42,348 bases of DNA from Candidatus Woesearchaeota archaeon (GCA_964622145.1 CAZUOK010000001.1:1-42348), one strand, 5' to 3'; counted from the stretch's first letter, positions 1,263 through 35,759 are shown. The notes: generated by a model not told the origin, from the sequence alone. Program-made: numbers and translations.

Positions 1263-1300
1263 ATCTTTAGATTAGAATGTTACAAAAAATAAAGTTTTCG

Positions 1301-1315: not shown

Positions 1316-1323
1316 TGGCAAGA

Positions 1324-2040: not shown

Positions 2041-2062
2041 GTTGAAAACCCCTCAAATAATC

Positions 2063-2070: not shown

Positions 2071-2154
2071 GCTTTGCTTTTTCTATTACCATTGAGAAAA
2101 GTACCTTCCTCACTATTCAGGAGATAAAAAAGTCAAAACCTTGTGTAGAAACAC

Positions 2155-2162
2155 TTAAATAT
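2155..2162 (+). promoter_or_regulatory. TATA-like box (TTAAATAT) for the 2186..3829 gene
   Basis: An A/T octamer centred about 27-28 nt upstream of the ATG at 2186. No Shine-Dalgarno-like purine run lies in between. Confidence 0.4.
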
Positions 2163-2185
2163 TTGTCATCTCATAGCATGCATCA

Positions 2186-3829: not shown

Positions 3830-3853
3830 TTAAAATGAGGTGTTAGGTATCTC

Positions 3854-10122: not shown

Positions 10123-11769
10123 TTACTCACTTCCGAGGCGTAGGAACCTTATCACAACGAAGAGTACCACAAGTAATATCACAACTATGGCAACCGTTCT
10201 TATATCAATACCTTCTATTCTCTTCACCTCTATTCCTTTGAATATCTTTTCAGAATATTTAGTCAATATCTCCTCCTCTGGACCATAGTATAACCTTATT
10301 TTTATGTTTGAATTCCTTCTAAAATCCTCTTCATCCAAATATATCTTAAATGTTATTATATTCTCCCCTTTCTTCAACCTCGTGGGCTTTTTCGTCAGAG
10401 TGTAGCTCTTCCCAGCAATCGTTATCCCATACAATTCCGGTTTCAGCCACACGTACTCATTCGGATTGTACACCTTTATCCAGAGAAGCTCCTTATCCTT
10501 GTCATAATAGAGACCTTCCAATTCAACACTCTTTGAAAATGTTAAGGATGCTTTTTCAGGATAAAAGGTAAACAGTCCTTCCTCATTTCTTATCTGTCTG
10601 TCCAAAGTATCATATCCATAATAAACCCAGACCTCTGTGTAGTTTATCCAGCTGAAGTTTGCATAAAATGGTATTGAAAAGACCTCTCCAGGGAGTATCT
10701 TATGGGTTTCAGGATCTGTAAACGTAAGCTCCTTATCCCCAACAACCCTAACACCAAATATCCTAAAGTTTTCTTCAACATTACCCTTATTTTCAAGGAT
10801 TAGAAGAACTGTATTATTTCCAAAAAGTATCTTTTTTACTCTAAGATCATGTATCATGTAGTCGGTTGGTCTTGATGGCAAGGTAAGTAATTTTCCCCTC
10901 AGATAAGGATCTCCTGTCACCATCCTACCAATCCTTGCAACAACCCCTATGGTATTTCCAGACATCTCCCTTATCCTCCTCCCCCTATCCACATTCTCAG
11001 GACCTATCACCTCAACAACCCTTACCCCCAAATCCGTCAGAAATTCTGCTATCCCCCTCAGATCGTCGCTCAGTAACAATATTGGAACACCGGCCTCAAA
11101 CATGCCCTTTGTTATATATTCTCCACTTACCAGGATTATCCAGTCCCCCTTTCTGTAAGCTCTCTTCACGATTTCCTTGTTGTTTTCATATATCCCCTTG
11201 TTTAAAACCTCATACCTATTCTTTATCTTCTTCCAGGGCTGAGTGAGGAAGTCCCCATAGAATATAACTGGCTTATCCTTATTCTTGTTCAAAAATTCTA
11301 TTAGTGCTTTTTCATCATCCTCATCATAAAACAGTACCCAGTATTTCTTCCTTACAGCATAGGGAAATACTGAGATAGCATCGTAAGCAAAATCTTTCCT
11401 TACAACTATAAATCCCTCAACCCTAGGACTTATCATTTCATATAGGGAATACTGAAGATCTTTGTAATCTTTAAATCTTACATAGTGTATCATTGAGAAT
11501 CCGTAATTCATCATGGAAGACTTCAGATCTTCTATCACAGGCTTATCCATGCTCTCAAATATTGTGTAAGATTTTGTTCTGTCCAAAGTTCTCAACATCA
11601 AATCAAGATCTCCAAGGCTTGTCACATAATTAAAGTCTTCTCCAGAAAACTTCGAGTAAAGTGTTAAGATGTAACAATCCCTCCAAGACTGGGAATTCAC
11701 GATTATGTACGACTCTGCAGTGGTTATCATGATTAAGGAGAGGAATAGAGATAGCAGCATTCTCCTCAT
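10123..11769 (-). CDS. Membrane-anchored surface protein P2; paralog of 2186..3829
   Basis: 548 aa with signal peptide MRRMLLSLFLSLIMITTAES. The N-domain starts YIIVNSQSWRDCYILTLYS (compare IVVINSKDWKDVYSGILYA in P1). Shared motifs include VEVIGPENV vs VTVIGPQLT. Two Ig-like modules follow, then a C-terminal TM (VAIVVILLVVLFVVIRFL). This is the first gene of the minus-strand operon. Confidence 0.85.
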   Translation of the reverse strand: MRRMLLSLFLSLIMITTAESYIIVNSQSWRDCYILTLYSKFSGEDFNYVTSLGDLDLMLRTLDRTKSYTIFESMDKPVIEDLKSSMMNYGFSMIHYVRFKDYKDLQYSLYEMISPRVEGFIVVRKDFAYDAISVFPYAVRKKYWVLFYDEDDEKALIEFLNKNKDKPVIFYGDFLTQPWKKIKNRYEVLNKGIYENNKEIVKRAYRKGDWIILVSGEYITKGMFEAGVPILLLSDDLRGIAEFLTDLGVRVVEVIGPENVDRGRRIREMSGNTIGVVARIGRMVTGDPYLRGKLLTLPSRPTDYMIHDLRVKKILFGNNTVLLILENKGNVEENFRIFGVRVVGDKELTFTDPETHKILPGEVFSIPFYANFSWINYTEVWVYYGYDTLDRQIRNEEGLFTFYPEKASLTFSKSVELEGLYYDKDKELLWIKVYNPNEYVWLKPELYGITIAGKSYTLTKKPTRLKKGENIITFKIYLDEEDFRRNSNIKIRLYYGPEEEILTKYSEKIFKGIEVKRIEGIDIRTVAIVVILLVVLFVVIRFLRLGSE

Positions 11770-11784: not shown

Positions 11785-14700
11785 ATGAAAAACGTATTTA
11801 AACATAACTGTGAAAGATATTTAAAGAAGGATGAAATTTGGGGGTGTTTGATGGAGATTTGGAAAATTATTCCTGTTGCTTTCATGATCTTTCTCCTCCT
11901 CCCTATCAACATAGCCGCACTTAATTTGACAAATTCCACAAATAAAACAGCTTCTTCGAGGAAATTCTACGAGATTTTCTTTGAAAATCCTGAGAGACAG
12001 TGTAAAGGAAGTGTGGCTATTTATGGAAGGGTCCTTGAGAATGGGAAGGGGTATACAGGACCCATAGAGATTTCTGTAAATGGGACACTGTACCAAGTTT
12101 ACTCGGAGAATGGGAGATTTAAGATGCCTATAGAACTTGAAACTGGGAGATATGAAATAATTGGAAGTATTGGGGGTTACTCGAGCAGGACCTTCATAGA
12201 AGTAGTAAATTGTGGAGAAGTTAGGTTGTACTACAATTCCTCTTGCGAGCAGGTTACTTTCTGGGGATACGCAAAGATAAACGGAGAGAATTATACGGGA
12301 TTTGGAAGACTAATTGTAAATGACTCCGAGATTCAAGTTGAATTCCTGAATGGGAACATGATACCTTACTCCACAACCCTTCTCCCCGGAAGGTACAAAG
12401 TTTCTTTGGAGGTCCTCGGCATAAGAGATACAAAAATTATTATTGTTCAATTGTGCAAACCAACACTTGTTGTTAACAATTATACTATTTGTGCGCAATT
12501 TGACAAACCATTTATTGTTGTAATAGGGAATAACACGTATGATGTTAAGGGAAAATTCTGCAGGGAACTGCCACCTGGAAGGTACAATGTAACGGTTAGA
12601 TGGGATGAAGGATCTATTTCAAGCGAGGTATTTCTACCAAGGATTGATATAAAGATGAGGAAAGTGTACTCACCAAGAGAGAGCATTTTATTTAAAGTGT
12701 TCTCAGACATCTACCCCGTTTGTTATCAGATACCAGAGATAGGAATATCCAAGTGTACAAACCACACAACGATAAGGATTGGGAAGCTAGAAGAAGGGAA
12801 CTACACATTAGTGATAAAGGTTGGGGATGTTACATTAAAGAGATACTTCAGGGTCTTCAGGAAGGTAATAAGAAAGATATTTGGAGAACATGAGTTCATC
12901 ATAGAAGGGAATGTTAGTGTTGAGAAGGTTGGGGAAAAATATGTATTGAAAGGCTCTGGCTTTGTTTCTCTGAACCTCACCTCAAACCCCTTCATTATAT
13001 CGTACGCTTGGGAAAGGGCTGGAAAAAAGTATAAGCCTCTAAACCTTTCCTTCGAAATAAATGGAACAAAGGAGATTATTCTTCCTAGGAGGTCTAGGTT
13101 TGATGTTGGGGTTGTAAAGAAGGGGAGCATTGCTGAAGTAATAGCGGAGCATAGAAAAATGTTTTTGAAGGTTATTGGGGGTACATTTGACAAGGTATTT
13201 GTTGTGGATCCCGAGAGTATACCTGAGAAACCAAGAGAATTCCCAAATAAATTATTAAAAGTTTATATAAGGACAAACGAATCGAAAGTAAGACTTTATT
13301 TGAGTAAGAAGTACAGGTACCCAGAAGTTTGGAAGTTCAACCCAAAGAGGTTTGAGTGGAGGAAGATAGGGTATTCTATAGAAGGGGATTATATTGTTGT
13401 TACTCTTGAGGATGGAGGTCCCTTCGACGAGGATGGAGAAAAAAATGGAGTAATTGTTGATGATATTGGAATAACAACAAGTTGGTGGAACGAGAGCTGG
13501 AAGTGGAGAAGGATATACAATATAACTTCATCAAAGAATCAGAATATAACAGGTTTCCCAGCCTACATTATAGTAAACACCAGCAAACTAATCTCTGAGG
13601 GAAAGATGAGGGGTGATTGTGGGGACGTAAGATTTACCTTCTGGAATAGGACGAGCAATTCTGAAGAGGAAATCCCCTATCTCTTTGTTGGACCCTGTAA
13701 TTCAAGTCATTCCCTAATCTGGTTTAGATTACCAGTTCTCTATGATAACTCCACAAGCACAACAGTTTTTATGTACTTTGGAAATCCAAATGCAACAGAT
13801 AACAGTGATCCCCAAGCAGTTTTCCCAGGATTAAGGGCATACTGGGCATTTGAGGAAGGTAGTGGGAACGTTACGAAAGATTACTCAGGAAACAACTTTG
13901 ATGGAGTATTGACGGATGTTGCGGGTGGAGATCCCCCACTTTGGAGGAATACATCTTCCTGTGTTGTAGGATATTGTATTGAGAGTGATGACATTGGGGA
14001 TGCTGTGAATCTCAGCTATTTGGCAGTCAATGGTCTTGATAATGTTACATTTGAGGCTTGGATAAAGACAACAGATAACAGGTGGGGTTTAATAAGCGGG
14101 GCAAATTCTGGACAAGACAACGAATATCTTATCTATCTTGAGACAACTCCAGAGCTTAGACTGTATATAAAGGGATCATATGATGGTGTACCTCCAGGAA
14201 GCCTCACTGATGGTAATTGGCATCACCTCGTTGTTGTTAGAAATTCTGATGGAACGGCGGAATTTTATCTCGATGGCTCCCTCCTGGGGACGGTCTCAGG
14301 ACTAAGAACAGGAACGCTTACTATAGATCCAAATGGGCTCTGGTTGCTCCAGGAACAAGATTCCGTTGGAGGGTCATGGGACACTACACAAGTATTTATA
14401 GGATTGGTAGATGAGGTTAGAATATACAACAGATCCCTCTCTCAAGACGATATCCAAAAAAGGGTAACAAACTATACAAAGACACTTGTTCTCGAAGAAT
14501 ATCTAGCAAAATTGAATGTAACTATAGATTATCCATCCGAAGGATTTGTTGCAATAAGATATGAACCCTTCTGGTTAAATGGGACTGTGCATTGTGTTAG
14601 AGGAAATTGTAGCAACGTATCCGTTTACGCTCAATACATAGAACCCACTGGAATATCTGGGGAAGTTATCGAGGATACACAGCAAGATTTCATAAATTAT

Positions 14701-17700
14701 TCAGAAAAAGTAAACGTATCAATATTTGACTACCTAAAACTCCAACCCGAGACTGGGAAAAGTTGGTGGAATGAGAGTTGGAGGTATAGGATGAAGATAA
14801 ACATATCTTATACGGGACAAGGAAATTTGACGGAGTACACTGTCAACGTAACAATTGACACACAATCACTAATAACACAAGGAAAGATGAGTCCAAATTG
14901 CTCCGATATTGTTTTTACATACTACAACCAAACGACGGAGAGCGAATACGAAATTCCTTACTGGATAGAATCGGGTTGTAACACAACAAACACAGTAATC
15001 TGGGTAAGAGTTCCTCTGATAAGAAACTCCACAAATGAAACCATTTACATGTACTATGGGAATCCAAATGCGAAAATATACTATGATCCCGACGATGTCT
15101 TCGAATATTTTGTAAATTTCACGAAGCTTGGCGTTCAATCTGCGTATGGTTCTGGCCAAGACATTACCCCAAACAACTGGGAGATTGTTAATGACACCAT
15201 TCTGCATCTCTGGGGAAACAACTGGAAAGGTGTTTATTACGGTCCAATAAAGATAGAGGGGGATGGTTCCCAGATACTGGAACTCTACATGAACGGTACA
15301 GATACCGCTGAGATATATGGAGTAGGATTCGATGTAGATCTTGACAATGTGAATGATGCCCGAGGATCCTTCTACAAGTTTGCTGGGTCACAAGCATGGG
15401 GACTAACTCCAGACCAAAGCTACACAAACTTTGGGAATTGGCAGAGAGTTTACGCAATTTTGGATGATTTTTCTGGTCAGTATTTATACTTTATCTTCTC
15501 AAACGATGACGATGCGGACTCAAACGGAAATGTCTGGTATAAGAACGTTAGGGTGAGGAAATACGCAACACCAGAACCAACAGCAACAGTGATTGGGGAG
15601 GAAGTATTGAGTATAAGGCCATCTGGATACTACATCTCAAAGGTAATTGACTTGGGTTCTCAAGATGTCAGGTTTGGGAACATATATTGGATTGCAAAGG
15701 TACCACAAAACACTTCCCTCAAGGTTTATACAAGGAGTTCAAGTGATGGGGTTGCTTGGTCCGTGTGGTACGAGGAGATCAACAACACGGATGTGAACGC
15801 TCCGGACGCAAGGTACATCCAATATAAAGTTGAGATGACAAGTCAGGATCCAAACAAGACCCCAATCTTTGACAAAATTGTTATAGAATACACGTACACC
15901 GCCCCGAAATTCAAAGATATGAAATCTTCCGGAACCCCATTCACAACCACAAATCCGTACGACTGTGGTGTACTTGATCAAACAAACAACGTTTGTTACC
16001 CATCCTTCCAGGTAACCCCAACGGAGAAAGGGAACTTCACATTAAGATTGCTCGCAAACTCCACGGACACGAACATAGAGCCGGCGGAATCCCAGTGGGT
16101 TAACATAACAGTTTATGAGAGGACATACATAACGGATTTCAAGATACAACCCTCCGTTCAATATAAGGGAGGTTCTGTAACAATTTCTGTAAGACTTCTT
16201 GATGCATCCTCAAATCCCATCCCAAATCAGAACATAACCTTTACGGATGAAACGGATGGAACAACGATTGGATCAGTCCTAACAGACTCTAACGGATACG
16301 CTGTTATCCAATACAACATCCCAAGAAACGCTTCCTTAGGCTATCACACAATAAGGGCAGACTATCCTGGGAATTCATCCCTATTCTATTACTCCTCCTG
16401 GTCAACGGAACAACTTAAAGTATCGAGCTCTCCACAGTTCTGGGAAATAGGAACAAACGATACCTACATAGGGACAGGGGAAAGAGTCAAGATCTTCGCA
16501 AACGTAACGGACGAAGTTGGACTGGACACAGTCCTTGTGTTTATAACATATCCTAATGGAACAGAAGTCAATAGGACAATGACTTACAACAAGGCTTCAG
16601 GATACTACGAATACGTTACGGAAAAGCTTTGGGAAAAGGGGAATTATTCATTCTATATATGGGCAAACAACACTGATGGAATAGAGAACAAGTCATGGAC
16701 GGAGAACTTCTATCTGAAGATTGTTGGTAGGCTGGATGTGTCAACAGAGAAAGAGAAGTACAAGAACTTTGAGATATTGCATCTCTCAAACATGAATAGG
16801 GAGTGGGACATGCCAGGATATGCTTATAGAAGATGGTTGAGCATATATTCAAATCAAACGGAATGGGGAACAGCTGTTCTAAGGGTTGACACAAAGTCTT
16901 TAATATCAGAAGGGAAGATGAACCCGGACTGCTCTGATATAAAGTTTGCAAAGATAACGACGATAGAAGAGATAAAGGTCCATATTGACAACCCCTATGG
17001 AGTTTACAGATCCGACTTCGTTTTCCCAATTGAGATAACAGATAAAAGATTCTTGGGGAAGGTTGATCCAGCAGGTAGGGATATAAGAATATTTACGTAT
17101 AAGACAGACCAGCCCTACTCCCAAGAGCCAGATGTTCCCTTCTGGGTAGAAAGCATAACGAGCTCAAGAGCTAGGATCTGGATAAGACATAACCTCCCAA
17201 TAAACGGTCTTGATCTTTACATATATTATGGAAAGCCTGGAGCGGAAAGCAAGAGTAACTACACCGCGGTGTTCAAGGAAGTTGTTGGGGAGGCTGGGAT
17301 AGTTTATACAAATGACTCTTGGGTCAACTTCTCTTACCTGAATTCAACAGGAGATACCGTGTTTGTGTTCTCAAGCATAAATACATACTATGGAAGTGAT
17401 GAGGCATTCACAAGGATAACAAAGGTAAATTCTTCGGGATTCCATGTCTTGATACAAGAATCTGTTGCTCTAGATCAAAGTCATGCTTATGAAAAGATAG
17501 GCTGGATAGGATTTAGAAAGGGGGCTTGGATTGTCTGTGGTAAAGTGATATACGTAGGGAACGATTCCATAGATTCGAATTACAAAACGGTTACCGTCCC
17601 ATACTCCTTCCAGGATCCTGTCTGGGTAAGCCAGATACAGACCTTCTATGAGACTGATCCTGCCCATACAAGGATGAACAACCCAGGATCAAATTCCATA

Positions 17701-20700
17701 AACATTAAGATAGAGGAAACAAACACAGCGGATACTCCTCACACCTATGAAAATGTTGCATACCTTGTAACAGAGCAATTCGTTTGTGAAAGTGGGAACT
17801 TTAAAATAGCAACGGGGAAGAAGTATCACAGACAGAGTTCTGATGTCTCAGCAACAGCGGGATGGACTTACTACGACCTCCCAAACTTCCCAACAACACC
17901 GGTTGTTGTTGCAAAGATAATGACGGAGAGGGGAGGAGACAACGTCCACGAGAGGATAAAGGATGTTACAACAGATGGATTTAACTACGCTATGGAAGAA
18001 GAATCTGGATACGATGGACCACACATAGAAGAGTGGAATGGGTACATTGCGGTGACTCCTGGACCAATATACGGAGCGAAATTAGAAGATACTTGGCCAA
18101 CAACCACAATAGTTGAGGGTCCAAATGTGATAGCAAAGACCATTGAGGAGATACCCCACTATCTCAAGTCAAATTGCAATCAAAATGATACAGAAATCCT
18201 TGTGAATTTGAAGCAAGTAAGTGAGGGGGAGAATAGGGTTTACATGTACTATGGGAATCCGTACGATAAAGAGATTGAAAACACTGGAGAGGATGCTATC
18301 AATGTGTTTACATATCCATCCCAGTACTGTAGCTATGTCGTCCTTGGAATAGGAGGATCTAGCATGGATATTGTTAGCTATTCTCATAACAACATTATTA
18401 GTATTGGTGGGACAACAATAACGCTGAACAAGGGAGAGTACACAACAGTTTCGGTGTCAAATGGGGATGAAATATGTTCAACAGGTCCTATATCAACCGG
18501 TACACAAAGCACTGGGGATGGTGCACCAGCAGTTCCAAAGACCTGGGCTGGAAAAACATTTGTGGTTGCTGTTACAAGGTACAATCCAGTTTACTTCGAC
18601 ATATACGCCCTTGAGAATGCAACGATAAGGGTCTACAACAGCACGGGAACGGGGTGGACTCTTGTAGAGGAGTTTAGTCTTTCAGAGGGGGAATACATAC
18701 AAAAAAGCTATCCTGGGGGAGACTCGAGAGTAACAACCATAGAAGTATCCTATCTTATAAATTCTACTGGAAATATCTTAGTATTCTACAGAGGGAAGAG
18801 CGATGACTACATGCCACTTACCCCAGCAAACACAGAGCTTTATTTGAATCCAACGCAGTACCTTGTAATAGCAGCAATCTACGACAACACAAATGTAAAT
18901 ATTTACTTCTCGGATGGATCCTCGACAACCGTAACACTAAATGCTGGACAAGGATGGGTTGGAGGTGCATATGGAAGTGATGGAAATGCAAACTCTGTTA
19001 GAATAGTTTCCGACAAGCCGATATTTGCATATCAACAGGCAGATTCTGATGGAACAGAAACCACGCCTGGAGTCTCACCCAAATATATGGACAGGATATT
19101 CTTCTTCCCACAGGATGCTGAATACTTTGTTGCAACAACAAAAACAAACAAAACAACCTACTGTGCCCTGTATGACACAAATGGAACACTTGTCAACGAA
19201 TGGACGGTAACAGCGAGCTATCCGTATCCGGGAAAGATAGGGTATGGAACAGGTCAAGATGGGACGATAAATATAAGGAAGGGCTACAAGTTGGTCTGTA
19301 ATGAAAGCGTAATCGTGATATATGAAGAATCTTCTAACGATGCCGAAACCATACTCTACGGTCCAAGCGCCCATGCAAAGATAATAAACGTTACATACAA
19401 TGACCTTGGGATCGAAGAAGATTACTACGTTAACATTGAAAACAACGGTAATGAGACAATAAGAGGTTATATTTATGCAATAATACAGAGATTTGAGGAT
19501 GGACAGTGGGTGAACGTCCCTCCAGCGATAATAAACGATAGGGCATCTGAAAATCTCAGAGTTATAGGGCCAGGAGAATCCCTAAATCTAACGTATCTTT
19601 GGGAATATTATGGAGCTTGGAACACAAGCTCAAATCCAAATGGAAGGTACAGAGTATACGTAAGGTTCGAAGATGAAAAGGGTAATGTAATAACTGACTG
19701 GTACGGAAACCCACTAGAAGACTACGGATACTTTGAGATAATCCCCGCAGACCTTTCGATAATAAACCTGACACACAAGGCAATGTATGAAAAGGATCTT
19801 GAGGAATACGAGACAAACGATACAATAGACTGGATAAACCTAACAGTAACCTCTCTTGAGAATACTGGTATAGATACAAGGGTTTACCTGACGTTTATAG
19901 ATGAGTCTGGGAAGTATGTTGGATTTGGACCAAATAGTGAGGAAAGGACTTGTGGAACTATTGAGGAGAATAATACCTGCTCTGTTTCGTATGGTCCGGT
20001 AACAATTCCAGAGAACACGGGTAACTTGGTTGTTAGGTTCAAGGTAAATCTAACCGCCCAAAACTCCGGAGGGGCGATCTTTGACACGAGAGGAATAAAC
20101 TTCAGGTATGCTGTTCCATTGGATGTTGAGGAGATATCTGGAAACAATCTTATAAACTATCCTGTAATGCTAATATTGAATGTCTCTGACCTGATAAATA
20201 AGGGGAAGGTTAGGAGTGATCTCGCAGACCTGAGGGTCTTGGATGATAAAAAGAAGGAGGTTCCAAGGCTAATACTGGATTACAACGAAACCCACAAGAT
20301 AATATTCTTCCCGACAAACCTTTCAGCAAACGAGAGAAAAACTTACTACCTTGTCTATGGAAATTCCTCCCTTTCCCAACCGAGCTATCCAGATGTGTAC
20401 ATGTTTGAGTACCTTTCAGGATACGACCAGTGGAAAACAATATCAGATAGCAGGCAGAATCTCATCATAATAGCCTACTTCAACAACACAAAGTTCAAGG
20501 TCGAGGGAGGTATAAATGTGAACGGAACACTAAACGCTGGGGAATTCTACAAGGTTGAGCTACCAACAAACAGCCAATACAGTCCATTGAAGTACATTAT
20601 TAAGACAACAAAGCCGGTAACTGTCATAATTGGAAGTACTGAACTCTCAAGACCAAATGGAGCAACCTATTCATTAGATTACCTCTCAAGACCTTATGGA

Positions 20701-23700
20701 AGGTACTTCCTGACTTGGGGTATGGATGGATCAACTTCAGGAAATCTCACCATATTTGTAACAGAGAATGATACCGTAATAAGTGTAAAGAACATGTCCT
20801 CAGGAAATTATTTGATTCAAAACCAGGTCTACAACTTTGGAGATGTTGTCCACCTCTCGACAAGCCCTCATGTCTTTGAGATAAACTCCTCGAAGCCAGT
20901 GCTTGTAGTAATATCCCAGGATGACGCGTTTACTTCTAGAGATATAGGATACAGAATTCCGAGCTTCAATGGGACCTGGGATGGTACGTACTTCAAGTTT
21001 TATCTAACTTATGCAGGAGGGTTCTACATTGTTAATCCCAACGATCATCCAATAAACTATACCGTTTCAGGTTGCATAACCGGATCTGGGACAGTTGGAC
21101 CGAAGAGTAGTGTCCTTATAACTGGAGGGACTGCTGGAAGCCTTTGTGAGGTCTGGACAACAGAAAGGGCCCTTCTATTCTCAGAGATCTATGCGGACGT
21201 ACAGTATTATATAACTTCTCTCGATGGGGCAACGACGGGGAAGGAGTTTGTGTACAGGGTGGAGGATCCATACCAGGGAGGTAATGTAGTAATTGGGATA
21301 CACGTACTCTTTGATGGGACGGATGTTCAGGATGGTTGTTCGGGGGTCTACTGGACAAATCTGAACAAAGGATGGCACTACTACAGAAATGCTAAGAGCT
21401 CCGGGGAATGTAGGATCATAGCATCAAAGCCCATTGTTGTGTTGCTGATGGTTTCTGAACAAGAACCCTCCTACACTGTCTCCGTACCAGAGTGGCATAT
21501 GGATTGGAAAGAAAAACCAATAATTAGGGTTTACAAGGAAATCTCAACGAGGATATTTGTCCATGACATCCCATCAACATTCTCTTCAACCCCACCAGAG
21601 AGACTCTATCAGAACGGTCCCCCCGTCTACTACAACTTCTCCATGAAGAACCTTTGGAGAGAGAATATAACGAATCTTGCAATAAGGATAAACTGCCCAA
21701 ATCTTCCTGGTCTTACTTGTGAGTGTGTGGACAACCCAGGGCATCCCTACTGTAATGTTGGGAATCTAACTCCAAATCAAGAAATAACGGTCTCTTTCAA
21801 GATAACCGCAACGGAGGACACACCAACAGGGAATTACATTGTAAATGCAACCGTAAGCTATCTCAATCCACTAGGGAACAACAAGACTTGGAGGGAGGTT
21901 GAGCCTCAAACACTTGAGATCAGGACGTATGGGATCATGGAGATAACGGTGTACAGCTACCCTGAGAATGTTACAAGAGGTTCAAATGCAACTTTCAAGG
22001 CTTATGCAAACAACACTGGTGATCAGACAGCTCCCGAGGCTTGGCTTGCTTATTCTGTGTATCCTTCAGGATGGAGTATTGTTGAAGGATCTCGGAATGT
22101 TACAGCAACAAATGTTAGTCCTGGACAAATATTCTGGAACAACGTAACATTTTATGTGTCCCAAAGCTCTTCCCTTGGAGCTCAACAGGTAAAACTAGAA
22201 TCCGGCTCATCCCTTGACCAGAAAGACTTCAAGGTTGTTACAATTTATGTCTACGCAAACACGACACTAAATATCTGGTTAAACGACACGGATGCTAGCA
22301 GAGGGGAGTACGTTGAGGTGTTTGCAAAGCTCATGTATGATAATGGAACACCAGTGAAAGGTCAAAAAATTGAATTCTACGATGAGACGGACAACAGGTT
22401 CTTGGGATCCTCTATAACAAATTCCCAAGGTATAGCAAGTGTTATCTATTATTTAAATGAGTCTGTCTCTCTAGGAACCCACACCATAAACGCGAGTTAT
22501 CCTGGTAACTCAACGCTCTACTTGAACCCATCAGAAAACAGGACAACCCTTGAGGTTGGTCTGAAGCCAACAATACACTGGATAGAAATAGTTCCAAGCA
22601 TAGTTGGGTATGGGAAGAACGTTACCATAAGGGCAAATGTCACGGATGACAAGGGGGTTTCAAATGTAACAGCAGAGATAATATCTCCTGATGGTGAGAA
22701 AGAGACTGTTGTCCTCCAAAACGTTTACAGCACAATTTATGAAAGAGAATACTCTCCGAAGTGGCTGAATGGGACGTACAATGTGACAGTAATTGCGGAG
22801 GATACGAGTGGAAGTATAACAAAGGCTTTCTCCCAATTCCAGGTTGAGATAGAGAGTGAAATACTTGTGGAAACTGAAAAGCAATCTTATTTACCAACCG
22901 AGAATGTAAGATTGAAGAAGAATACTATATTCCCACTGAAATACAAAGTAGAGATAAAAATAAGGAGCAATGAAAGCGTGAACATAACGGAATATCAGAT
23001 TATGATAACCTTCAACAGCTCAAAGTTGATATCTGAAGGAAAGATGAGGGATGATTGTGGGGATCTGAGATTTTCATGGTTAAACAAGTCCTCTGGAGAG
23101 GAGGTTGAAATTCCATATTTCCTCGATTACGGATGTGGGGAAGGTGAGACGGTTGTTTGGGTAAAGGTTCCTTTAGTGTATGCAAACAATGTGACAACGA
23201 TATACATGTATTATGGAAACCCTGCCGTTACAAGCGATAGCAGTGAATTCGATGTGTTTACATTTGAAAAAGAAAATGCAACAACATTCTGGACAGTAAG
23301 CTCAGAGAGTGTTGGTCAAAATCTTGACATACAAGCCTTCCTAAACAACACAAGTGTTATATGGGAAGGAAGCTCTCAAAAGATTCAAAATGGAACATCG
23401 TATCAATTGTCATCTCCTTCATCCCAGACAAGCACACTTTCCCATGACAAACCTATATTTGGAGCGTTTGAGGGAGATACAACAGAGGCTCTGCATCCAA
23501 TCTCCTGGGCTGGAAAGAAGTTTGCATATTATGTTTATAGAGGAACAAACGAATGGCACATCTGTGCTCCATTTGGTGATGCCAAAGTACAGATATACGA
23601 CGGAACCACTCTTCTAGCAACGTATAATATACAGAAAGGGAACTGTATCGTTGCAAACAACGATGTAACGGATGGTAGCGTTGTGATAATAGAATCAAAT

Positions 23701-26700
23701 GAAAGCATACTTGTCCAACATGTGGATACCACAAACAACTACGATTCCAGGATTCTTTATCCCGTTTCCACAAGACTTTACGGAGTCCCATCAGAAAGAT
23801 TTGAAATAGCTGCAATAGAAGATGGGACAACTGTCAACATATACTGTTCGGATGGATACACAAACACCCTGACATTGGATAGGGGACAGGGCTGGGACTA
23901 TGCAATAGGAGGGTCTGAAGGTACTGCCCCAGCATGTGTGATAATATCCAACAAGCCTGTTGGTGCAAACTCGCTTGCAGATTCGGATGGTACAGAAACA
24001 ACAACCTTCCTACCTCTGGAAGAATTGGACAGGTATTACGTCTTCCCACAACCAGTTCAATACGTTGCGGTGGCAGCACCATTTGATGAGACAACCTGTA
24101 CTTTGTACAATCCAGACGGGACGGTCTACGACTCCCAGACAGCGTATGTATCCGGAAACGCTCCCGGAAAGATATACTTCGGTTCCACAACAGATGGAAC
24201 AAATATACAAGCTGGCTCTTACATGATATGTAACAAGCCTGTCTTTGCATACTATGAGTACGCAACCACAAACGATGAAACCCAATTGTTTGGTCCAAAG
24301 GCAAACAGGAAGTACAGCCCAAGGATTTACGTTGAGAGCTTTGGAAATGAAACCCTTGCGGTTAGCCAGGTGATAAACTACAAGAGGATATTTGAGGGAT
24401 ATATAATAGCGGAGGTTGAGAAGAAGATTGGGGAGAGCTGGGTAAGAAAGAGTGTTCTTGTAAACGATACCACAACCGGAACGAGGAGAGAGTTTAATTT
24501 ATCTTTGTTTGATCTTTCAAAAGTCATTCCGGCCTGGAATCCTGAAGGGGAGACAGGAGAGTTTAGGATGAAGATATACGTCACAGATCCAGAAGGGAAC
24601 ATCCTGAACACAACGGATGGGAAATTGATAGGGTATGCTTACTTCAACGTCAGCCAGCCTCCATTGAAATTGAATGTGAGTGAGATCAGGGTTTACGAAA
24701 CTCCTTATGGAGAGCATGGGGGAGGGACGCTTGTTGACAAAGGAATTAACAAGACATTTATACTCGAGTCCGGAAAGGTCTACAGATTTGAGATCGATGT
24801 TGATGTCCTTTCTGATTCCCAGACCTGGAACATAACTGAAGCTAACGTTACTTTTGAAAATCTAAATCAATCCTGGATAATAGATGTCCAGAACGATGTC
24901 TGGTATCTGAACCAAACAGATACTGCGGAAAGGCTTGGAGGACTGTTTACAAACGGTATTTTGAAGTGGAATACAAGCGAGAATGATGGTACCGCGGATA
25001 ACGGGACAAAGGTAACTTTCTACTTCATACTAAATCTTACTGGGGCATCGGAGGAGGAAAGGGGTGTTCTCTTCAGGATTGAGACCCCAACCACAATTGT
25101 AAAGGATTTTGACACATTAAAGATAATAGTACCAGATACAACACCACCAAACCCTGTAATTTATGGGCTAAACACAACTGAGATATTCAGAGGGGAAAGT
25201 GTCTTGGCGTATGCTCAGTGGAATGAAGAGATAAAGAATGCAACAATAGAGTACAATTCTACAACAAAGTTCCTGAACAATTACACAATTCCAGGCCCAT
25301 ATACAAACAACTGGACGAACTATACAATAGAAACAACATCCCTGTGGTTACTTGGAAGACACTACGTAAGGATATACGCATCAGATCTCTCTGACAACTG
25401 GAACAAGACACCCGCAATGTACTTTAAGGTCTACGGGTTAGCTTACGTGAGTTCAATCTCAACAAACAATTCGAATCCCCTGGTAGGAGATACCGTAAAG
25501 ATAACCTGTCTCATCCTGGATGACACAAATGATCAGGGGATAGAGAATTACAATGTGAGCTTCTGGGTAAACAATTCTTATATAGGATCAAATCTGACAA
25601 ATTCGTCTGGATATGCAGAAATAACCTACCAATTCACAAGTCCTGGAAGTTACGAGATAAAGTGTAACATTACGGAAGATTTAGACAGATATTACAAGGT
25701 AGACAATAGGAATGAAAAATCCACAACGGTCTTTGTTAGGGAAACCGAGCCTCCAAAGTGGTGGGAGGTTGTTTACCCAAGTCTCGCACATAAGGGAGAC
25801 ACTGTGAACTTGAGTGTTAGGTGGAAGGACAACTTCGAACTGGATTACGCAATTCTCTCAACGAACGAGTCCGGAACTATGGAGAATGTTAGCTATATGA
25901 AACTGTCTGGGAAGGATGCTTGGGCAAACTTCTCGTATCAGATACCAACCACAATATCTCCTGGGTACATTATTTGGAAACAATACGCAAACGATACCTC
26001 GAACAACTGGAACGTTACAGACGAATACCTCATTGAGGTCTGGGGATGGGCGGAGGTTTCAAATGCGGTTGTGAACCCTTCCAGCATACAGCAGGGTGGA
26101 ACCACAACCATGTACTGTAAGATTGTGGATGCTAATCAAACAACGGTTGGGATTGAAGGGTACAACGTATCCTTCTACCTCGGAAACACACTACTTGGAT
26201 ACAATCTCACAAACTCTTCCGGGTGGGCGGAGTACACATTCACTGTAAACACAGCTGGAACTTACACCGTTAAATGTATCATTGGGGATTACCCAGAGAA
26301 GAAGTACAACGCCAGCAGTAAGAATGAAGGATCTGACACACTTACGGTATCGGCAACAGAAGACATATATCCTCCACAAATTGTAGACAACAACTACGGA
26401 TTGAATGCCACAAAGATCTACAGATACGACGCCATCCTTGTCTATGGACAGTGGAATGAGACAATAGACACCGCATGGGTGGAGTACAACAAAACAAGTT
26501 CTTTGATAACAGAGACCGTCCCCGGACCTTATACAAACAACTGGACAAACCACACGATCGTTACTGATGATGCATGGACACCTGGAGTCCACGTTGTAAA
26601 GCTATACGCAAACGATACCTCCGGTAACATAAACGACACATTACCCTACCTCTCCTTTGAAATGTGGGGAAGAAGCGCGGTTTACTGGGTATCACCAAAT

Positions 26701-29700
26701 GAAACTTACAGAGAGGTCGTTGACCTGGTATGTCAGGTGAAGGATTACGACACCGGAAGTCCGATAAGTGATTATGTTGTAGAATTCTACAACTCCACAA
26801 GCTATTTGGGATCAAACAAGACGGATTCAAATGGATATGCTAGGCTTAGAGTTGATCTCTCAAGCTACACGCCAGGATACAACACATTCTACTGCAAGAT
26901 TGTAAAAGATGATGAGAAATATTATGATCCCGCGGTATCTTCTGTTGGAAAGGATGTTCTTATAAAGGGAAAACTCAATGTGACAATAGTAAATCCTGAG
27001 AATGGAAGCTCTCTTGAAAGAGGGGAGACGTACTGGCTAAACTCAACAACATATGATGAATTTGGCAACAAGGTAACACCTGATTCATCATATTGGTTTG
27101 AGGGGCAAACGGAGATAGGATCCGGAGAGAACATCACATGGACTGTTCCATCGGATCATCCCCTCGGTCCAACAGTTATAAAAGTAAACGTTACAAAACA
27201 ATACTACGATCCCGCTGAGGACAACATAACAGTGTACATCTACGGTCATTCCTCAGTTGTGTGGGTATCACCAGAAGATGGGAGCTATCCATCAGGAAGC
27301 ATCCTGGAATTGATATGTTATGTAAACGACACAGATAGAAATTCTGGGATATCTGGATATCCCGTAAGCTTCTACTACAATGGAACCCTCATAGGGACAT
27401 CTAATACAAACTCAACAGGTTACGCTGTAATATCATGGGATACTTCAGGATTGGATGGAACGTACAATGTAAGTTGTGAAATTGGAAACTACAGTTATTA
27501 TATAGCAAAGAAAACATCAGATTCCACAATGATTGAGGTATACCTTGACACAACACCACCAAACGTCACGATAGTATCTCCAGAGAACAAGAGCTACAAC
27601 ATAAATACAATACCTCTGAATTACACCGTACAAGACGAACACTTGGATTCCTGTTGGTACGAACTTGATGGGACGAATTACTCACTTCCAAATTGTGAGA
27701 ACACAACGCTTACAAACTTACAGGAAGGAAGTCATTATGTAAGGGTCTATGCGAACGATACTGCTGGGAATGTTGGATATTCCGAAGTTTGGTTTACTGT
27801 TGACCTTACAAGTCCCGTAATAACCATAATATCTCCCGAAAACAGAACGTATGGTGAAACAGGAATTTGGATGAATATAACACTAAATGAGGCTGGAAGT
27901 GTGTGTATGTACTCTATAGATGGTGGACAAAACCAAACAATGAACAAGCTTAACGATACTTACTTCTACAGGTTCGCATCTGTTGGAGAGGGAACTCACA
28001 AGGTCAAATTCTTCTGTAACGATACCGCAGGGAACTGGGGGAGTGCCCAAGAATTCTTCACAGTAGATCTAACGGCCCCCACAGTAACACTCTACGAACC
28101 CGAAAACAATAGTGTTCTAGATCAAGGCAATGTAACCTTCAAATGCTATGCAGAAGACAATCTAAAACTCATTAACGTTACTCTATACACAAACAAGTCT
28201 GGATCTTTCTCTCCAGAGCTAACAAACTCGAGCGGGATAAATGGAAATTATACATTCAAACTAACAATGTCAGAAGGATATTATATCTGGAACTGCAAAG
28301 CTTGCGATGATATCAGATGCTCATTTTACTCAGAAAATTGGAGCTTCTATGTGGACTTGAATGCTCCCACTGTTACAGTAGTATCACCGGAAAACAAGAG
28401 TTACAATACGAATACAATACAACTAAATTATAGTGCAAGTGACTTAACCTTGGATTCCTGTTGGTACGAACTTGATGGGACGAATTACTCACTTCCAAAT
28501 TGTGAGAACACAACGCTTACAAACCTTGCGGAGGGATCCCATCATCTAATCGTTTATGCGAATGACAGTTTGGGTAGAGTAGGATATGATGAGGTTTGGT
28601 TTAGAGTTGATTTGACACCTCCAAGCCTTGTTGTTGTCTCTCCAGAGAACAACACAGAGTATGGGACTCCAAACGTCCCACTAGAGTATTCCGTCTCCGA
28701 TAACATAGAGGTGGATACTTGTTGGTACGTCCTTGATGGCGGTCAGCCAACAGTATTGCTAAACTGCCAGAACACAACGCTATCTCTTGACAACGGTCCA
28801 CACAATATAACTGTGTACGTAAACGACACTGCCGGAAACACGAACCAGAGCTTTGTACAATTCACAGTAAACTCAACAGCCCCATACGTAAAGATCCTAC
28901 ATCCTGTTGAGGGGAACTACTACAACAACCAAACCATATGGTTGAACTATACAGTACAGGATACGGATCTTGATTCCTGTTGGTACAGCATAGACGGTGG
29001 AGACAATGTTAGCATTCCAAACTGTCAAAACATAACCATAACGGTCTCCGATGGCTCACACAATGTGAAGGTATATGCAAACGATAGTCTTAATCAGATT
29101 GGATGGGATTCTGTGAACTTCTTCGTTGACACTGTCCCCCCAAGCCTTGTGTTGATATCTCCGGAAAACAAGAGTTATAGTGAGAATACGATATGGATAA
29201 ATTACACCGTGAACGATACAAATCTTGATTACTGTGTTTACGAGCTGGATGGCTCGAACACAACAGTATCTGATTGTAGTAATGTAAGTCTGGAGTTGTC
29301 AGAGGGAAGCCACTACGTAAGGGTGTTTGCATTCGATAAAGCAGGGAACTACAACGTAACCTCAAAGGTCTGGTTCACAGTTGACACAACACCACCAAAC
29401 GTCACGATAGTATCTCCAGAGAACAAGACGTACACTGTGAACGATATCCCACTAAACTACACGGTATCTGATAACTTCGAGATATCCATGTGCTGGTATG
29501 TCCTGGACTCCCAGGAGGAGGTCTATCTACAAGGCTGTCAGAACACAACATTAACGAATGTTCCTGATGGGAGTCATAGGATAAGGGTCTATGCGAATGA
29601 CTCTGCTGGGAATGTTGGATACTCTGAGGTTTGGTTTACTGTTGACACAAGGGGTCCGAACATATATTTCGTCCCACCAACCCCAGGAGATAACCAAGCT

Positions 29701-32700
29701 ATAGATTACAATTGGACTTACATAAACATAACAACGGATGAGGATGCTAGCATCGCAATACTGGAATTCGATTTCAACAACGGTACGGTTTTGAACTTTA
29801 CCATGAATCAGAACAATCCAAGGAATTGGTGGTACAATGTTACGGATCTCCAGGATGGGACGTACTATTATAGAGTCCATGCGAACGATACCTTCGGCAA
29901 CTGGAATACAACAGCATGGAGAACTGTCAGGATCTCTGTTGGGGCTCCAGCAATAAACATAATATCTCCAGAGAACAAGACATACAAGGATTCTAACTAC
30001 ATCCAGCTGAACGTTACTGTGAACAAAGAGGTTTCTGCTTGGTGGTATTCAATAAACAACGGTAGGAATATCACCTTCACTCCAAACATATCCATAGCCG
30101 CAAGGATTGGATCAAATGTTGTAAGGGTCTATGCGAACGACTCTGCTGGGAATGTTGGATACTCTGAGGTTTGGTTTACTGTTGACACAACCTTCTGGGA
30201 GGACAAGTTCGATCACTACAGTGGTCTTGAAATCTGGGAAAATATAACAATAGAAAATGGGAGTGCAAAGATAAGATTCTGTTATCCAGTATTTGAGCCT
30301 GATTGCTGGAAATATAGGGTAAGAATAAATGTATCAAATCCAGACACCCAAGACCACACAGATGTCCAGCTGAATCTTACTGTGGATACACAATCCCTTA
30401 TATCTGAAGGGAAGATGAATGGGAACTGTTCTGACATAAGGTTCACTTACTACAATCAGACCAGTGGGGAAGAGTACGAAATACCTTACTACATAGAATC
30501 GGGATGTAACACAACAAGCACGATAATCTGGGTAAAGGTTCCCTTCGTCCCCGCGGGAGGCAGTTCCATTATATACATGTACTACGGAAACCCTGGAGCT
30601 CAAGGAAGGTCAAATATCTCAGAGGTATTCAATTATTACAACAATATCGGACAGTGTAATGGCTCGGTGGCTGGGGGAAGCTGTTCAGTAATATTTGATG
30701 CCCCAGCTGGGGAAGTATTCTACGAGGCAAATCTCACTATGAGGATGGCTGGAGACTTCGGATATGGAGGATCATTCTCATCAGATGCTGTTTGTGATGA
30801 GAATTATGAGAGGGCAAATCTTATTGTTGACGGATCGGTAATAGGTTGTTATTCCACAGGCATTGATGGTTGTACACTGAACGAGCCTCCGGGGATGCCA
30901 GTAAGCATAGATGTCAGGAACAAGGGATCCGTAAATGTTACAGGAGATTCCACGGATGTTGTAAATCTTGATCCAAACAATTGTGGATTCTACTATAAGT
31001 TCGAGTTTGAAATAAGTGGATACACGAGGAAGAATGCTACCCTAGAGTACTCTGTTGGAACTGAAGAAGTTGCAATAAGGAATGCAAAGATTAGGAGCAT
31101 AGCAATAAAACCAAGGAAGGTTGCAAGATGGTTGAAGTTTTATGGTGTACACAGCATACCAACGGGGACAGGAATTGAGTACAGGATCCTTGACAGCAAC
31201 AACAACACCCTCCTTGTCTGCAATTCTGAGACAGCACAGACTGGTTGTGATCTCTCAGGTATTAATGCAAAAGAAATAAAATTAGAAGCAGTATTGACAA
31301 CAAACTCAGAGGCTACTCCAGAACTCATGTACTGGAATGTATCCTGGACACCAAACTCAAGTGTTGCGATAAACGTCATAAATGAGACCTCTGGAACCAT
31401 ATCGAACGCTCTTATAAGAATTCTAAGAAATGGAACAGTATTGGCTGAAGGTTATGGAAGTGTTGTTGTAGATGTTGAGATATACGAAAACTACACAGTA
31501 GAAACAATTACAGGAACATCTTATGGAGATCTCCTGCTAAGACTCTTTGAGCTCAATGTTACAAAGGATACAATAGAAATAAAGGAACAAATTGTTGAGA
31601 ACTACACAGGAAACCTCCCACAAAACATCTGGAAGGTCACTCCAGTTGTTGCTCTGAACGACACAGACTTGAATTACTCCAAGGCGACGCTTGTGATACC
31701 GAAGGGAGATGTCCAAAGCATTGATTATATATTACACTGTACGGACTGGAACTACACCTCAGCAACATGTAACAACTGGGTTACATCAGATCCAAACAGT
31801 TACGAGGGATTTGGTGAAAACTCAACACACTTCTGGTTCAACGTGACAGGATTCCAGGCATACGCTGGAGGGACTGTAGGATATGATGTACAAGTGAATG
31901 AAATAACATTTAACAAAACAAAGCCTGTTGAAAATGAAACCGTGCTTGTAACAGCAAATGTGAGTAATGAGGGAAGTTCTGATCTCACAAATGTTACCAT
32001 AAGGCTTGAGATATATCTATGGAATGAAACTTCAGGAAGCTGGATACTGGATGAGAGCTATGAGAAGAACGTCTCAATACCCGTAGGAAACTACACACTC
32101 GTAAACTTTACTTGGACGGCAAAGATAGGTACCTACAATTTCACAGTAATTGCAGATCCCTACGATCAGATTGATGAGGTAAACGAGAGCAACAATGCAA
32201 ACTGGAGCGAGCTAAATGTTTCCGCATGGACAATATACTATGGACACGTGAATGGTTGGATAGTTATAGGAGGAAACAACGGAGAAAACTTTACGGTTTG
32301 GATACCTTATATGATAGAGGGAAATCTTTACTTTGCAGATCAAGACTCAAGCTTTGAATTTGAGAATCTCATGCCATTAAATGGAACAAACGATCTTGAA
32401 GAGCTGGATGAAGCGCTTAACATGAGCATATACAAAGATTCTGTATCAAACGTTTATGATAAGGATGGGGATGGTGTACCAGACCACACGGATTGTTTCA
32501 GCATAGGTAACAGGCTCCTATGCGATGTGCCAGTAGTAAATTCAACCGAAGAAAACAACGGAAACTTTGTTACAGGGATACTTTGGGATTCAGGAGATGG
32601 AGGAACAGAGTACAATGGAACACAAGATGTTGTTTTTATAACGAAGGTAAACTATAACAAAACAGGAAGTTTTGGAAGATACGACTACGAGGTAAGAATA

Positions 32701-32776: not shown

Positions 32777-32800
32777 TTGATTTTTTCAAAAAGAAGAGAT

Positions 32801-33811
32801 ATGAGTGAATTTGAGCCTGAAAAAGAGTTAGAGATTTCAAAGGAAAAGATTAGAGAATTTAGAGACAAGATACATACTCTTAAAGAAGAAATACACAAAA
32901 CAATAGTTGGTCAAGAAGAAGTTGTAAAACAGGTATTGGTCTGTCTTATATGTGACATGCACGCCCTACTCGAGGGAGTTCCAGGCCTTGCGAAGTCCCT
33001 TCTAGCAGAAACACTTTCGAGATGTATTGAGGGGGCAACATTCAAAAGGATACAGTTCGTCCCAGACATGCTACCATCAGACATTATAGGGGTTACAATC
33101 TTCGATCCATCAACAGGGACTTTTAAGACTGTTAAAGGACCAATATTTGCGAATTTTATAATCGCTGATGAGGTCAACAGAGCCCCTCCAAAGACACAAA
33201 GCGCTCTCTTGGAAGCAATGCAGGAGAGGAGGGTGTACATATATGGGGAGGAATATCCCCTTGAAAGACCATTCCTCGTCCTAGCAACCCAGAACCCGCT
33301 AGAACAACAGGGGGTCTATCCCCTATCAGAGGCCTTTGTGGATAGATTCTTCATGAAGATATTGGTCGATTACCCAAGTTGGGATGAGGAGATGGAAATA
33401 ATAGATAGAAACACAATGGTCCAATATGACGTTCTTGAGAAGGTCAAAAAGGTCATGACAAAAGAAGATATAGTAGAGATGCAGAGGGCTGTTAGGAAGA
33501 TCTATATAGCTAGACCGATAAAGGAATACATATTAAGGATTGTCCAGACAACGAGGGGGAAAGGTGAAAAAATAAGGTATCTGAAATATATAAGGTACGG
33601 TGCCTCACCTAGGGGTTCCATATCTTTAGCACTTGCGGCAAGGGCTATTGCAATGATGAAGGGAAGAAACTTCGTGATACCAGACGACATAAAAGAAATA
33701 ATATACCCTGTCCTCAGGCACAGGATCATACTGAACTTTGAAGGAAGGGCTGCTGGGATATCTACAGATGAAATAATAACGGAGATACTTGAAAATGTTG
33801 AGGTTCCTTGA
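32801..33811 (+). CDS. MoxR-family AAA+ ATPase
   Basis: Walker A GVPGLAKS and Walker B/sensor block FIIADEVNRAPPKTQSALLEAMQERRV. Also present are PFLVLATQNPLEQQGVYPLSEAFVDRF and the C-terminal GASPRGSISL lid motif. All are hallmarks of MoxR (AAA_3). The start is taken at ATG 32801 rather than the track TTG at 32777, which would overlap the TATA box. Confidence 0.92.
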   Translation: MSEFEPEKELEISKEKIREFRDKIHTLKEEIHKTIVGQEEVVKQVLVCLICDMHALLEGVPGLAKSLLAETLSRCIEGATFKRIQFVPDMLPSDIIGVTIFDPSTGTFKTVKGPIFANFIIADEVNRAPPKTQSALLEAMQERRVYIYGEEYPLERPFLVLATQNPLEQQGVYPLSEAFVDRFFMKILVDYPSWDEEMEIIDRNTMVQYDVLEKVKKVMTKEDIVEMQRAVRKIYIARPIKEYILRIVQTTRGKGEKIRYLKYIRYGASPRGSISLALAARAIAMMKGRNFVIPDDIKEIIYPVLRHRIILNFEGRAAGISTDEIITEILENVEVP

Positions 33812-35707: not shown

Positions 35708-35728
35708 TCTTTGGATGGTAACAAAAGA

Positions 35729-35736
35729 TTTATATA
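35729..35736 (+). promoter_or_regulatory. TATA box (TTTATATA) for the S2 gene
   Basis: Centred about 27-28 nt upstream of the ATG at 35760. Identical octamer and spacing as upstream of S1. Confidence 0.5.
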
Positions 35737-35759
35737 AAGGTAGTTGCTTCTGGAATGAC

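Follow-up and report, generated by a model that had tools for sequence, protein, structure and literature searches.

The window analysed here, a stretch of 42,348 nucleotides (nt) from Candidatus Woesearchaeota archaeon (GCA_964622145.1, CAZUOK010000001.1:1-42348), is dominated by one open reading frame (ORF) of the plus strand, 11785-32766, which spans 6993 codons when counted from the first ATG. This ORF encodes a giant protein with seven domains of the DUF2341 family (PF10102), a large family without an assigned function, and each of these domains is directly followed by a further domain, here called a head (Table 1). The more likely start of the protein is methionine 23 at nt 11851, which gives 6971 amino acids (aa), and one protein record (P0053) is identical to the product of that start. 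The N-terminus of the giant protein reads MEIWKIIPVAFMIFLLLPINIAALN, and the sole hydrophobic segment detected by hydropathy is N-terminal (aa ~21-50); no C-terminal anchor was found by the same analysis. N-x-S/T sequons number 292, against 98.6 +/- 8.7 in shuffled sequences. This three-fold enrichment (z=22) implies very dense N-glycosylation of the protein and, together with the N-terminal hydrophobic segment, points to an extracellular location. Tandem Repeats Finder revealed no tandem DNA repeats in the gene, which makes an assembly artefact arising from repeats an unlikely source of the 21-kb ORF. A cluster look-up of the protein collection gave no further protein on record more than 90% identical to the giant protein, and the proteins of the window are near-singletons in that collection.

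A first-pass annotation of the DNA had proposed seven repeats of one signature within a single polypeptide. All seven positions (aa 567, 994, 1681, 2120, 2778, 3719 and 6175) lie in frame 1 of the giant ORF, and the motifs quoted for them are present. Their assignment to DUF2341 was borne out by a scan with PF10102 (gathering score 23.4 bits), in which the two halves of the protein matched at 3e-39 and 3.7e-28. A control profile was then built from 37 foreign sequences only, and 300 shuffles were scored per unit. The units reached 48-138 bits with this foreign-only profile, whereas the best shuffle gave no more than 11 bits. The seven repeats are real and stand far above chance. Module m5 falls under the PF10102 cut-off (20.0 vs 23.4 bits), yet it scores 59.6 bits with the full-length foreign-only profile. 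For the inner copy listed in Table 1, a PF10102 scan of pieces of the protein places the match at aa 1728-1842.

Table 1. Coordinates of the DUF2341 units, their heads and the neighbouring genes discussed in the text.
Feature	Position (nt)	Residues (aa)	Strand	Evidence
DUF2341 m1	13477..13824	565-680	+	PF10102 1.9e-10, 41.5 bits; foreign-only profile 108 bits
LamG/ConA-like head after m1	13996..14457	738-891	+	Laminin_G_3 3.6e-21; Pentaxin 3.4e-16
DUF2341 m2	14758..15102	992-1106	+	PF10102 9.6e-18, 64.9 bits; foreign-only profile 138 bits
~190-aa beta domain after m2, '..F..F ... VRVRKY.TPEP' type	15103..15669		+	Without Pfam annotation; iterated profile
N-terminal half, split (outer) DUF2341	16795..16974	1671-1730	+	Foreign-only profile; no PF10102 match
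Inner DUF2341, divergent, complete, without both Cys	16975..17274	1731-1830	+	PF10102 3.9e-8, 34.1 bits; foreign-only profile 48 bits
Three ~85-aa H-type-lectin-like repeats, second part of insert	17275..18123	1839-1900, 1921-1986, 2002-2093	+	Internal repeats; colinear with P0026
C-terminal half, split (outer) DUF2341	18124..18309	2114-2175	+	PF10102 2.5e-5, 25.1 bits, profile positions 10-61 only
Beta-rich head after split DUF2341	18310..19410	2176-2542	+	Paralogous to aa 3826-4187; aligns with standalone proteins
DUF2341 m5, divergent, without both Cys	20107..20406	2775-2874	+	PF10102 9.4e-4, 20.0 bits; BLAST to m6 7e-13
IgGFc_binding-like beta module after m5	20407..21540	2875-3252	+	PF17517 3.3e-8, 33.6 bits vs 25.6 cut-off
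DUF2341 m6	22924..23259	3714-3825	+	PF10102 1.7e-13, 51.3 bits; foreign-only profile 125 bits
Beta-rich head after m6	23260..24345	3826-4187	+	Standalone homologues; P-[IV]-S-W-A-G-K and L-A-D-S-D-G-x-E-T-T motifs conserved
DUF2341 m7	30292..30630	6170-6282	+	PF10102 3.6e-19, 69.4 bits; AlphaFold pLDDT 96.9, pTM 0.88
Cys-rich domain after m7	30631..31224	6283-6480	+	Iterated profile; no Pfam match
MoxR AAA+ ATPase gene	32777-33811		+	Pfam AAA_3 1.5e-55
DUF58 gene	33789-34724		+	Pfam DUF58 3.8e-37
Membrane VWA gene	34715-35707		+	Pfam VWA 1.8e-19
~547-aa paralogue, first of pair	2186-3829		+	25% identity within pair; N-terminal signal and C-terminal hydrophobic stretch in translations
~547-aa paralogue, second of pair	10123-11769		-	As above
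~240-aa secreted paralogue, first of pair	1324-2040		-	29% identity within pair
~240-aa secreted paralogue, second of pair	35694-36449		+	As above

Structure prediction provides the boundaries of the domain. The AlphaFold2 model of m7 (113 aa), computed with an alignment of 43 sequences, is a seven-strand beta-sandwich with one short helix, predicted with a mean local confidence (pLDDT) of 96.9 and a predicted template modelling score (pTM) of 0.88. Its strands occupy residues 8-16, 22-31, 50-55, 60-64, 66-70, 77-86 and 90-98, and the helix residues 33-38. The PF10102 model begins only at the C-x-D-[IVL]-R-F motif and leaves ~44 N-terminal residues of the structural domain unmodelled. This stretch, which includes the W..W.YR motif, supplies strands 1 and 2 and the helix; it is an integral part of the fold, and its conservation extends to foreign homologues. 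The N-terminal part of the signature noted earlier (W..W.YR ... LISEGKM) is thus a genuine part of the domain, lying outside the Pfam model and within the AlphaFold fold. Neither the DUF2341 profile nor the beta module had a match in sequence searches of the PDB. A Foldseek comparison of the DUF2341 model with the PDB returned a weak top match (E=9e-3, template modelling score, TM, 0.51) and none below 1e-3; the weak neighbours are accessory beta-sandwiches of GH38 alpha-mannosidase, of GH66 dextranase/CITase and of TVAI, the latter two being N-terminal domains. Against a library of viral models, Foldseek recovered the DUF2341 fold at TM 0.60-0.75.

The count of seven domains given by the first-pass annotation stands, but the modules it placed at 16825 and 18142 contain the two halves of one split DUF2341. 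The segment at 16825 comprises an N-terminal half (ending ...CSDIKFAKITTIEEI) followed by a separate, complete and divergent DUF2341, and the C-terminal half that completes the first of these is the 'half module' at 18142, which begins ...AKTIEEIPHYLKSNC. The N-terminal half has no Pfam match because PF10102 starts ~44 residues inside the structural domain. Once joined, the halves can be aligned with m7 over the full length of the domain at 42% identity and score 81.6 bits with the foreign-only profile, as opposed to 36.0 and 39.9 bits apart. Furthermore, a paralogous super-module (aa 3413-4318), whose own DUF2341 (m6) is uninterrupted, aligns with aa 1398-2682 both before and after the break. 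The insert measures 383 aa and consists of the inner DUF2341 and three ~85-aa repeats; according to the predicted secondary structure, the break point lies near strands 3-4 of the sandwich.

The 505-aa composite of split domain and insert is colinear with P0026 (31% identity, E=5e-72), a partial protein of 830 aa from a metagenome-assembled genome (MAG) of Thorarchaeota in which profiles recover the same pattern of N-terminal half, full copy and C-terminal half. The order of domains in P0026 is Ig - Ig - DUF2341 N-half - DUF2341 - 3 x H_lectin - DUF2341 C-half, and the two Ig-like domains upstream of the split DUF2341 of the giant protein are also colinear with it (42% identity). Because a thorarchaeal protein has the same layout, the nested DUF2341 is, as judged from this colinearity, a conserved architecture common to distant archaeal MAGs and no accident of one gene. 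The middle of P0026 matches PF09458 (H_lectin) three times at 2.9e-12. The label 'H-lectin-like' for the repeats of the giant protein is a putative one, carried over from P0026 by colinearity, and we do not file these repeats as members of PF09458.

Patterns of conservation were obtained from 699 DUF2341 domains of 199 proteins, using the numbering of m7. The best-conserved positions were D48 (95%), Y98 (92%), G99 (89%), W80 (88%), N100 (87%), Y97 (86%), R50 (76%) and F51 (74%), and conservation of the E-G-K-M motif was below 60%. The pair of cysteines in D-C-x-D and S-G-C-N is complete in 257 domains, lacking altogether in 414 (59%) and represented by a single residue in only 28. Within the giant protein five units carry both cysteines, and the inner copy and m5 carry neither. 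The earlier proposal of an invariant EGKM..C.D.RF segment forming a metal or binding site must consequently be abandoned, given the modest conservation of E-G-K-M and a cysteine pair that co-varies and occurs in a minority of domains. Because the two cysteines are present or absent together, the pair fits an optional disulfide of a subfamily rather than an invariant metal site. In five of the seven copies this bond would probably connect the D-C-x-D loop that follows the helix with the S-G-C-N loop between beta5 and beta6.

Each DUF2341 opens a larger super-module, as the first-pass annotation had suggested, and the sequence of heads it described (LamG after the first module; beta-rich modules after modules 4, 5 and 6; a Cys-rich region after module 7) was recovered, its module 4 being the C-terminal half of the split copy. 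The LamG domain belongs to PF13385 (Laminin_G_3) with 76.3 bits against a cut-off of 27.6 bits. The ~365-aa beta modules that follow the split copy and m6 gave no direct match to PF17517 (IgGFc_binding), and the super-module of m5 aligns with that of the m6 type at an hhalign probability of 97%, the alignment including the DUF2341 part. Standalone proteins of 650-810 aa consist of a DUF2341 and a beta module (P0006, P0007, P0014, P0016, P0017 and P0028), and P0008 is also among the listed standalone homologues of the m6 beta module. An AlphaFold model of m6 together with its beta module reached a pLDDT of 85.3 and a pTM of 0.86; because of this pTM, the model points to a fixed arrangement of the two domains.

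The heads that follow m2 and m7 appear to be of one family, since the iterated profile of the m7 follower converges on the set of the m2 follower, with 226 shared matches. The profile built from the m2 follower finds 261 of the 697 segments that follow DUF2341 in other proteins, and one member matches PF06439, which has a ConA-like fold, at 1.6e-6. This ~190-aa family ('..FDDF ... VR[IV]RKY..PEP'), which follows DUF2341 in ~37% of the cases examined and lies mostly outside Pfam, is a candidate for a new Pfam family.

The association is general. Across 198 other proteins, a head class seeded from the giant protein follows 613 of 697 DUF2341 copies (88%), the segments being classified as LamG (295), jelly-roll-like (261), beta module (40) and H-lectin-like (15). 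Where the distance was measurable in these proteins, 3-10 residues separate the DUF2341 from the start of a LamG, beta-module or H-lectin head. Qualitatively, these profile comparisons leave a clear picture of a cassette in two parts, in which DUF2341 occupies the N-terminal position and an exchangeable, putatively lectin-like head follows. Note also that 62 of the proteins had four or more classified cassettes; 35 of these are restricted to a single head class, and just one has four. The giant protein combines four to five head classes in one chain and is among the most diverse.

The family itself is large. An exhaustive profile search covering 1.84 billion cluster representatives retrieved 18,510 proteins with DUF2341 at E<=1e-3 and 583 at E<=1e-30, and the top-ranked matches were rich in proteins of 4,000-7,900 aa with 5-21 copies. 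About 60 of the proteins examined carry at least five copies (5-21), so that the first-pass view that DUF2341 normally occurs once or twice per protein cannot be taken as a mark of rarity for multi-copy proteins. Single-copy proteins are still the majority among the genome loci found. Related giant ORFs (truncated, with 4-7 copies) occur at loci in DPANN and other archaea, Phycisphaerales, Leptospirales and other bacteria. A scan of genome contigs identified the nearest DUF2341 modules (57-58% identity) in MAGs of Woesearchaeota, Nanoarchaeota, Aenigmatarchaeota and Desulfurococcaceae. Other settings of DUF2341 include pilus loci, fusions of the MotA/ExbB type and viruses.

The 35-kb surroundings of the giant gene form an island of secreted or anchored proteins. 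Immediately downstream lie adjacent MoxR, DUF58 and VWA genes in a Bat-like arrangement with overlapping gene ends, the first of which starts 10 bp past the stop codon of the giant gene. Given the 10-bp spacing and the overlapping ends, the giant gene and this trio are probably co-transcribed as one operon, and the trio might help to mature or assemble the fibre. No MoxR match was found near other DUF2341 giants in 82 loci, though the flanks there are mostly taken up by the giant genes. The island also contains two pairs of paralogues (Table 1). Both families have homologues (43% and 36% identity) at positions 531-3124 of locus L061, where they are found immediately upstream of a further giant ORF with multiple DUF2341 copies. 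This locus comes from a MAG labelled Methanosarcinales, and the three families together make up a conserved neighbourhood that has no Pfam annotation.

We interpret the giant protein as a secreted or N-terminally anchored, N-glycosylated, multi-headed and adhesin-like fibre of an uncultured hyperthermophilic archaeon, in which DUF2341 pedestals bear lectin-like heads, and we assign to this reading a probability of roughly 0.6. The fibre would be built of long arrays of Ig-like spacers and seven head cassettes, each cassette consisting of a ~113-aa DUF2341 beta-sandwich and a variable lectin-like head joined with essentially no linker. The seven heads would be one LamG domain, two jelly-roll-like domains without Pfam annotation (one of them Cys-rich), three ~365-aa beta modules of IgGFc-binding-like type and one triple array of H-type-lectin-like repeats. 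The most likely task of DUF2341 would be to present the head, as a rigid pedestal or adaptor packed against it, and DUF2341 is probably not itself a site of ligand binding. Insertion of one cassette into the beta3-beta4 region of another DUF2341 would generate a branched double head. The fibre as a whole would most likely mediate multivalent attachment to glycans or glycosylated surfaces, be they those of other cells, a host or a biofilm matrix.

A number of observations weigh against this interpretation. Foldseek comparisons with the PDB revealed no solved structure closely resembling DUF2341, and the model of m6 with its beta module gave only meaningless matches there (TM ~0.1). The domains after m2 and m7 give no direct match to Pfam, and the three repeats of the giant protein itself (aa 1839-2093) do not match PF09458 at E<=1. 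The head profiles are home-made and iterated, and may have drifted, given that the LamG and jelly-roll classes share 18 matches. Finally, the link of DUF2341 to pili appears to hold for relatives and not demonstrably for the giant protein, which shows neither of the marks of the Epd-type proteins discussed below, a pilus-gene locus within the 42-kb window and a class III signal peptide.

If the conserved GK..DC.D.RF loop formed a pocket, DUF2341 itself would be the ligand- or metal-binding unit and its seven copies would confer multivalency. The strong conservation of D48 and R50, both at the junction of loop and strand, would agree with this, as would the carbohydrate-associated nature of the weak structural neighbours (GH38 and the N-terminal domains of GH66 and TVAI). 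We nevertheless consider it unlikely. The poorly conserved E-G-K-M and a cysteine pair that is missing from most domains and co-varies show the behaviour of a disulfide, two cysteines alone are insufficient for a metal site, no PDB entry matches DUF2341 at E<1e-3, and nearly every DUF2341 has a lectin-like partner directly downstream. It is also distinctly unlikely that the protein is a structural component of the envelope or matrix (a sheath, an S-layer-associated protein or a biofilm scaffold) whose lectin-like domains bind the glycans of the cell itself instead of foreign targets. Such a role would accord with the extreme density of sequons, with the island of secreted or anchored proteins, which includes two paralogue pairs and is in part conserved beside the DUF2341 giant of L061, and with a MoxR-DUF58-VWA system directly downstream that could assist assembly. 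The four to five head classes, set against the single class of 35 among 62 comparable proteins, better fit the recognition of varied targets, and Pfam matched no S-layer family in the giant protein or its neighbours.

Relatives of the giant protein raise a further alternative, a tip or accessory adhesin of type IV pili. DUF2341 proteins encoded in the Epd pilus loci of Methanococcus were suggested to be pilus-tip adhesins (PMC4858521), and transposon hits in the DUF2341 gene MMJJ_08210 of M. maripaludis came from a screen for transformation defects (PMC10133366). The closest standalone cassette homologues are encoded in a pilus locus, where the gene of P0007 adjoins a T2SSE ATPase gene and two T2SSF genes. 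Standalone P0006 starts with MKGQASLEY, an N-terminus resembling a class III signal peptide (Pfam 0.0069). Homologues of the pilus ATPase lie within 10 kb of DUF2341 modules at three loci (L013, L034 and L044); at L038 the ATPase match is weaker and partial, and at L042 T2SSF alone was matched. The Vibrio MshQ-type DUF2341-LamG proteins are presumably pilus-linked relatives as well. Like the giant protein, Epd-type (arCOG03508) proteins are extracellular, have been proposed to be adhesive and contain DUF2341, usually with a LamG or lectin-like domain directly after it. However, they have one or two cassettes, belong to pilus operons and in some cases carry class III signals, whereas the giant protein has seven cassettes, whose heads are of four to five types, and at 7,000 aa far exceeds known pilus subunits in length. 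No T2SSE or T2SSF homologue was found in the 42-kb window (tblastn at E<=0.01 and Pfam annotation of the neighbours), and the N-terminus shows an ordinary hydrophobic signal or anchor without the K/R-G-Q/A-x-S-x-E motif of class III (prepilin-type) signals. A pilus-associated role for the giant protein is therefore improbable.

The adhesin-like fibre that we favour has counterparts of several kinds, and giant modular surface proteins with uncharacterised DUF2341 domains are already known, so that the giant protein is not a new class of system. The closest are other multi-DUF2341 giants from metagenomes, which share its class of architecture (P0054, of 7264 aa with 21 copies; P0055-P0073; and ORFs in loci L004, L039, L057 and L060). 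They measure 4,000-7,900 aa, contain 5-21 copies and come from MAGs of DPANN and other archaea, Planctomycetota, Leptospirales and Bacteroidota. We found no description of them in the literature, and none has been characterised.

Giant Ig/LamG surface proteins of DPANN archaea have been proposed to function in attachment to host cells, and the nanohaloarchaeal SPEARE proteins (e.g., SVXNc_0300, of 9,409 aa) are reported to contain a VirB4/TraG-like ATPase domain and to have a second such ATPase adjacent to them (PMC10266531). These SPEARE and multi-LamG proteins resemble the giant protein in being very large, membrane-anchored and extracellular, with Ig-like arrays and LamG-type domains. In contrast to the SPEARE proteins, the giant protein has no ATPase domain that Pfam could find within its 6993 aa, and the ATPase encoded downstream is of the MoxR/AAA_3 type; DUF2341 goes unmentioned for SPEARE proteins in their description (PMC10266531). 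Bacterial fibrillar adhesins such as SiiE and the RTX adhesins of the LapA/MpIBP type likewise have long arrays of Ig-like extenders that bear ligand-binding modules, and SiiE was among the weak fold matches of the model of m6 and its beta module. The giant protein differs from them in its archaeal origin, in its domain families and in having no RTX or type I secretion signal, and the resemblance is one of analogy. The viral matches to the DUF2341 fold came from Sulfolobales Beppu rod-shaped virus 1, Sulfolobus ellipsoid virus 1, an uncultured archaeal virus, Cafeteria roenbergensis virus and caudoviruses. In these viruses DUF2341 is present in single copy, unlike the seven copies of the giant protein, and a role in receptor binding is only conjecture.

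It is tempting to extend the interpretation further. DUF2341 may be the dedicated pedestal of a portable cassette that has been shuffled among pilus adhesins, virus attachment proteins and giant fibres of archaea, bacteria and viruses and that can be nested into branched heads. Here it would have produced a seven-cassette fibre, possibly matured by the MoxR-DUF58-VWA system, as the main organ for attachment to partner cells. We offer this broader view tentatively, as a possibility with the odds against it. What the giant protein does provide is a display, within one chain, of rules that govern a large family: a domain that extends ~44 residues beyond its Pfam model, has no close solved relative and tolerates the insertion of a whole cassette in a loop. 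The value of these rules is practical, since they define boundaries for constructs, state how a cassette is composed and document a nested variant that is conserved, and they suggest how PF10102 could be extended.

The remainder of the window contains several features of separate interest. The ORF at 41065-42003 on the minus strand (312 aa) matches the Topoisom_bac profile at positions 102-410 only (7e-69), and a stop codon precedes it within the window. It is related to reverse gyrases, among them a number of complete topoisomerase-only genes of ~360 aa on long contigs, including a Methanopyrus entry, and its best identity to any relative is only 50%. These comparisons suggest that the ORF is part of a split reverse gyrase, which we take to be similar to the RgyA/RgyB type of Methanopyrus. 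It is because of this reverse gyrase fragment that we regard the archaeon as hyperthermophilic.

Two adjacent small genes of the plus strand at 37892-38880 (162 and 170 aa) encode one MgtE transmembrane domain each, and the pair looks like a split or minimal divalent cation transporter of the MgtE type that has no cytosolic domain. Between the island of surface proteins and a TYW3 gene, a 118-aa ORF (36441-36797, minus strand) matches PF18894, annotated as 'putative phage metallopeptidase', at 5.5e-26. The only RNA gene detected in the window by Rfam and ARAGORN is a tRNA-Thr (CGU) at 800-872 on the minus strand.

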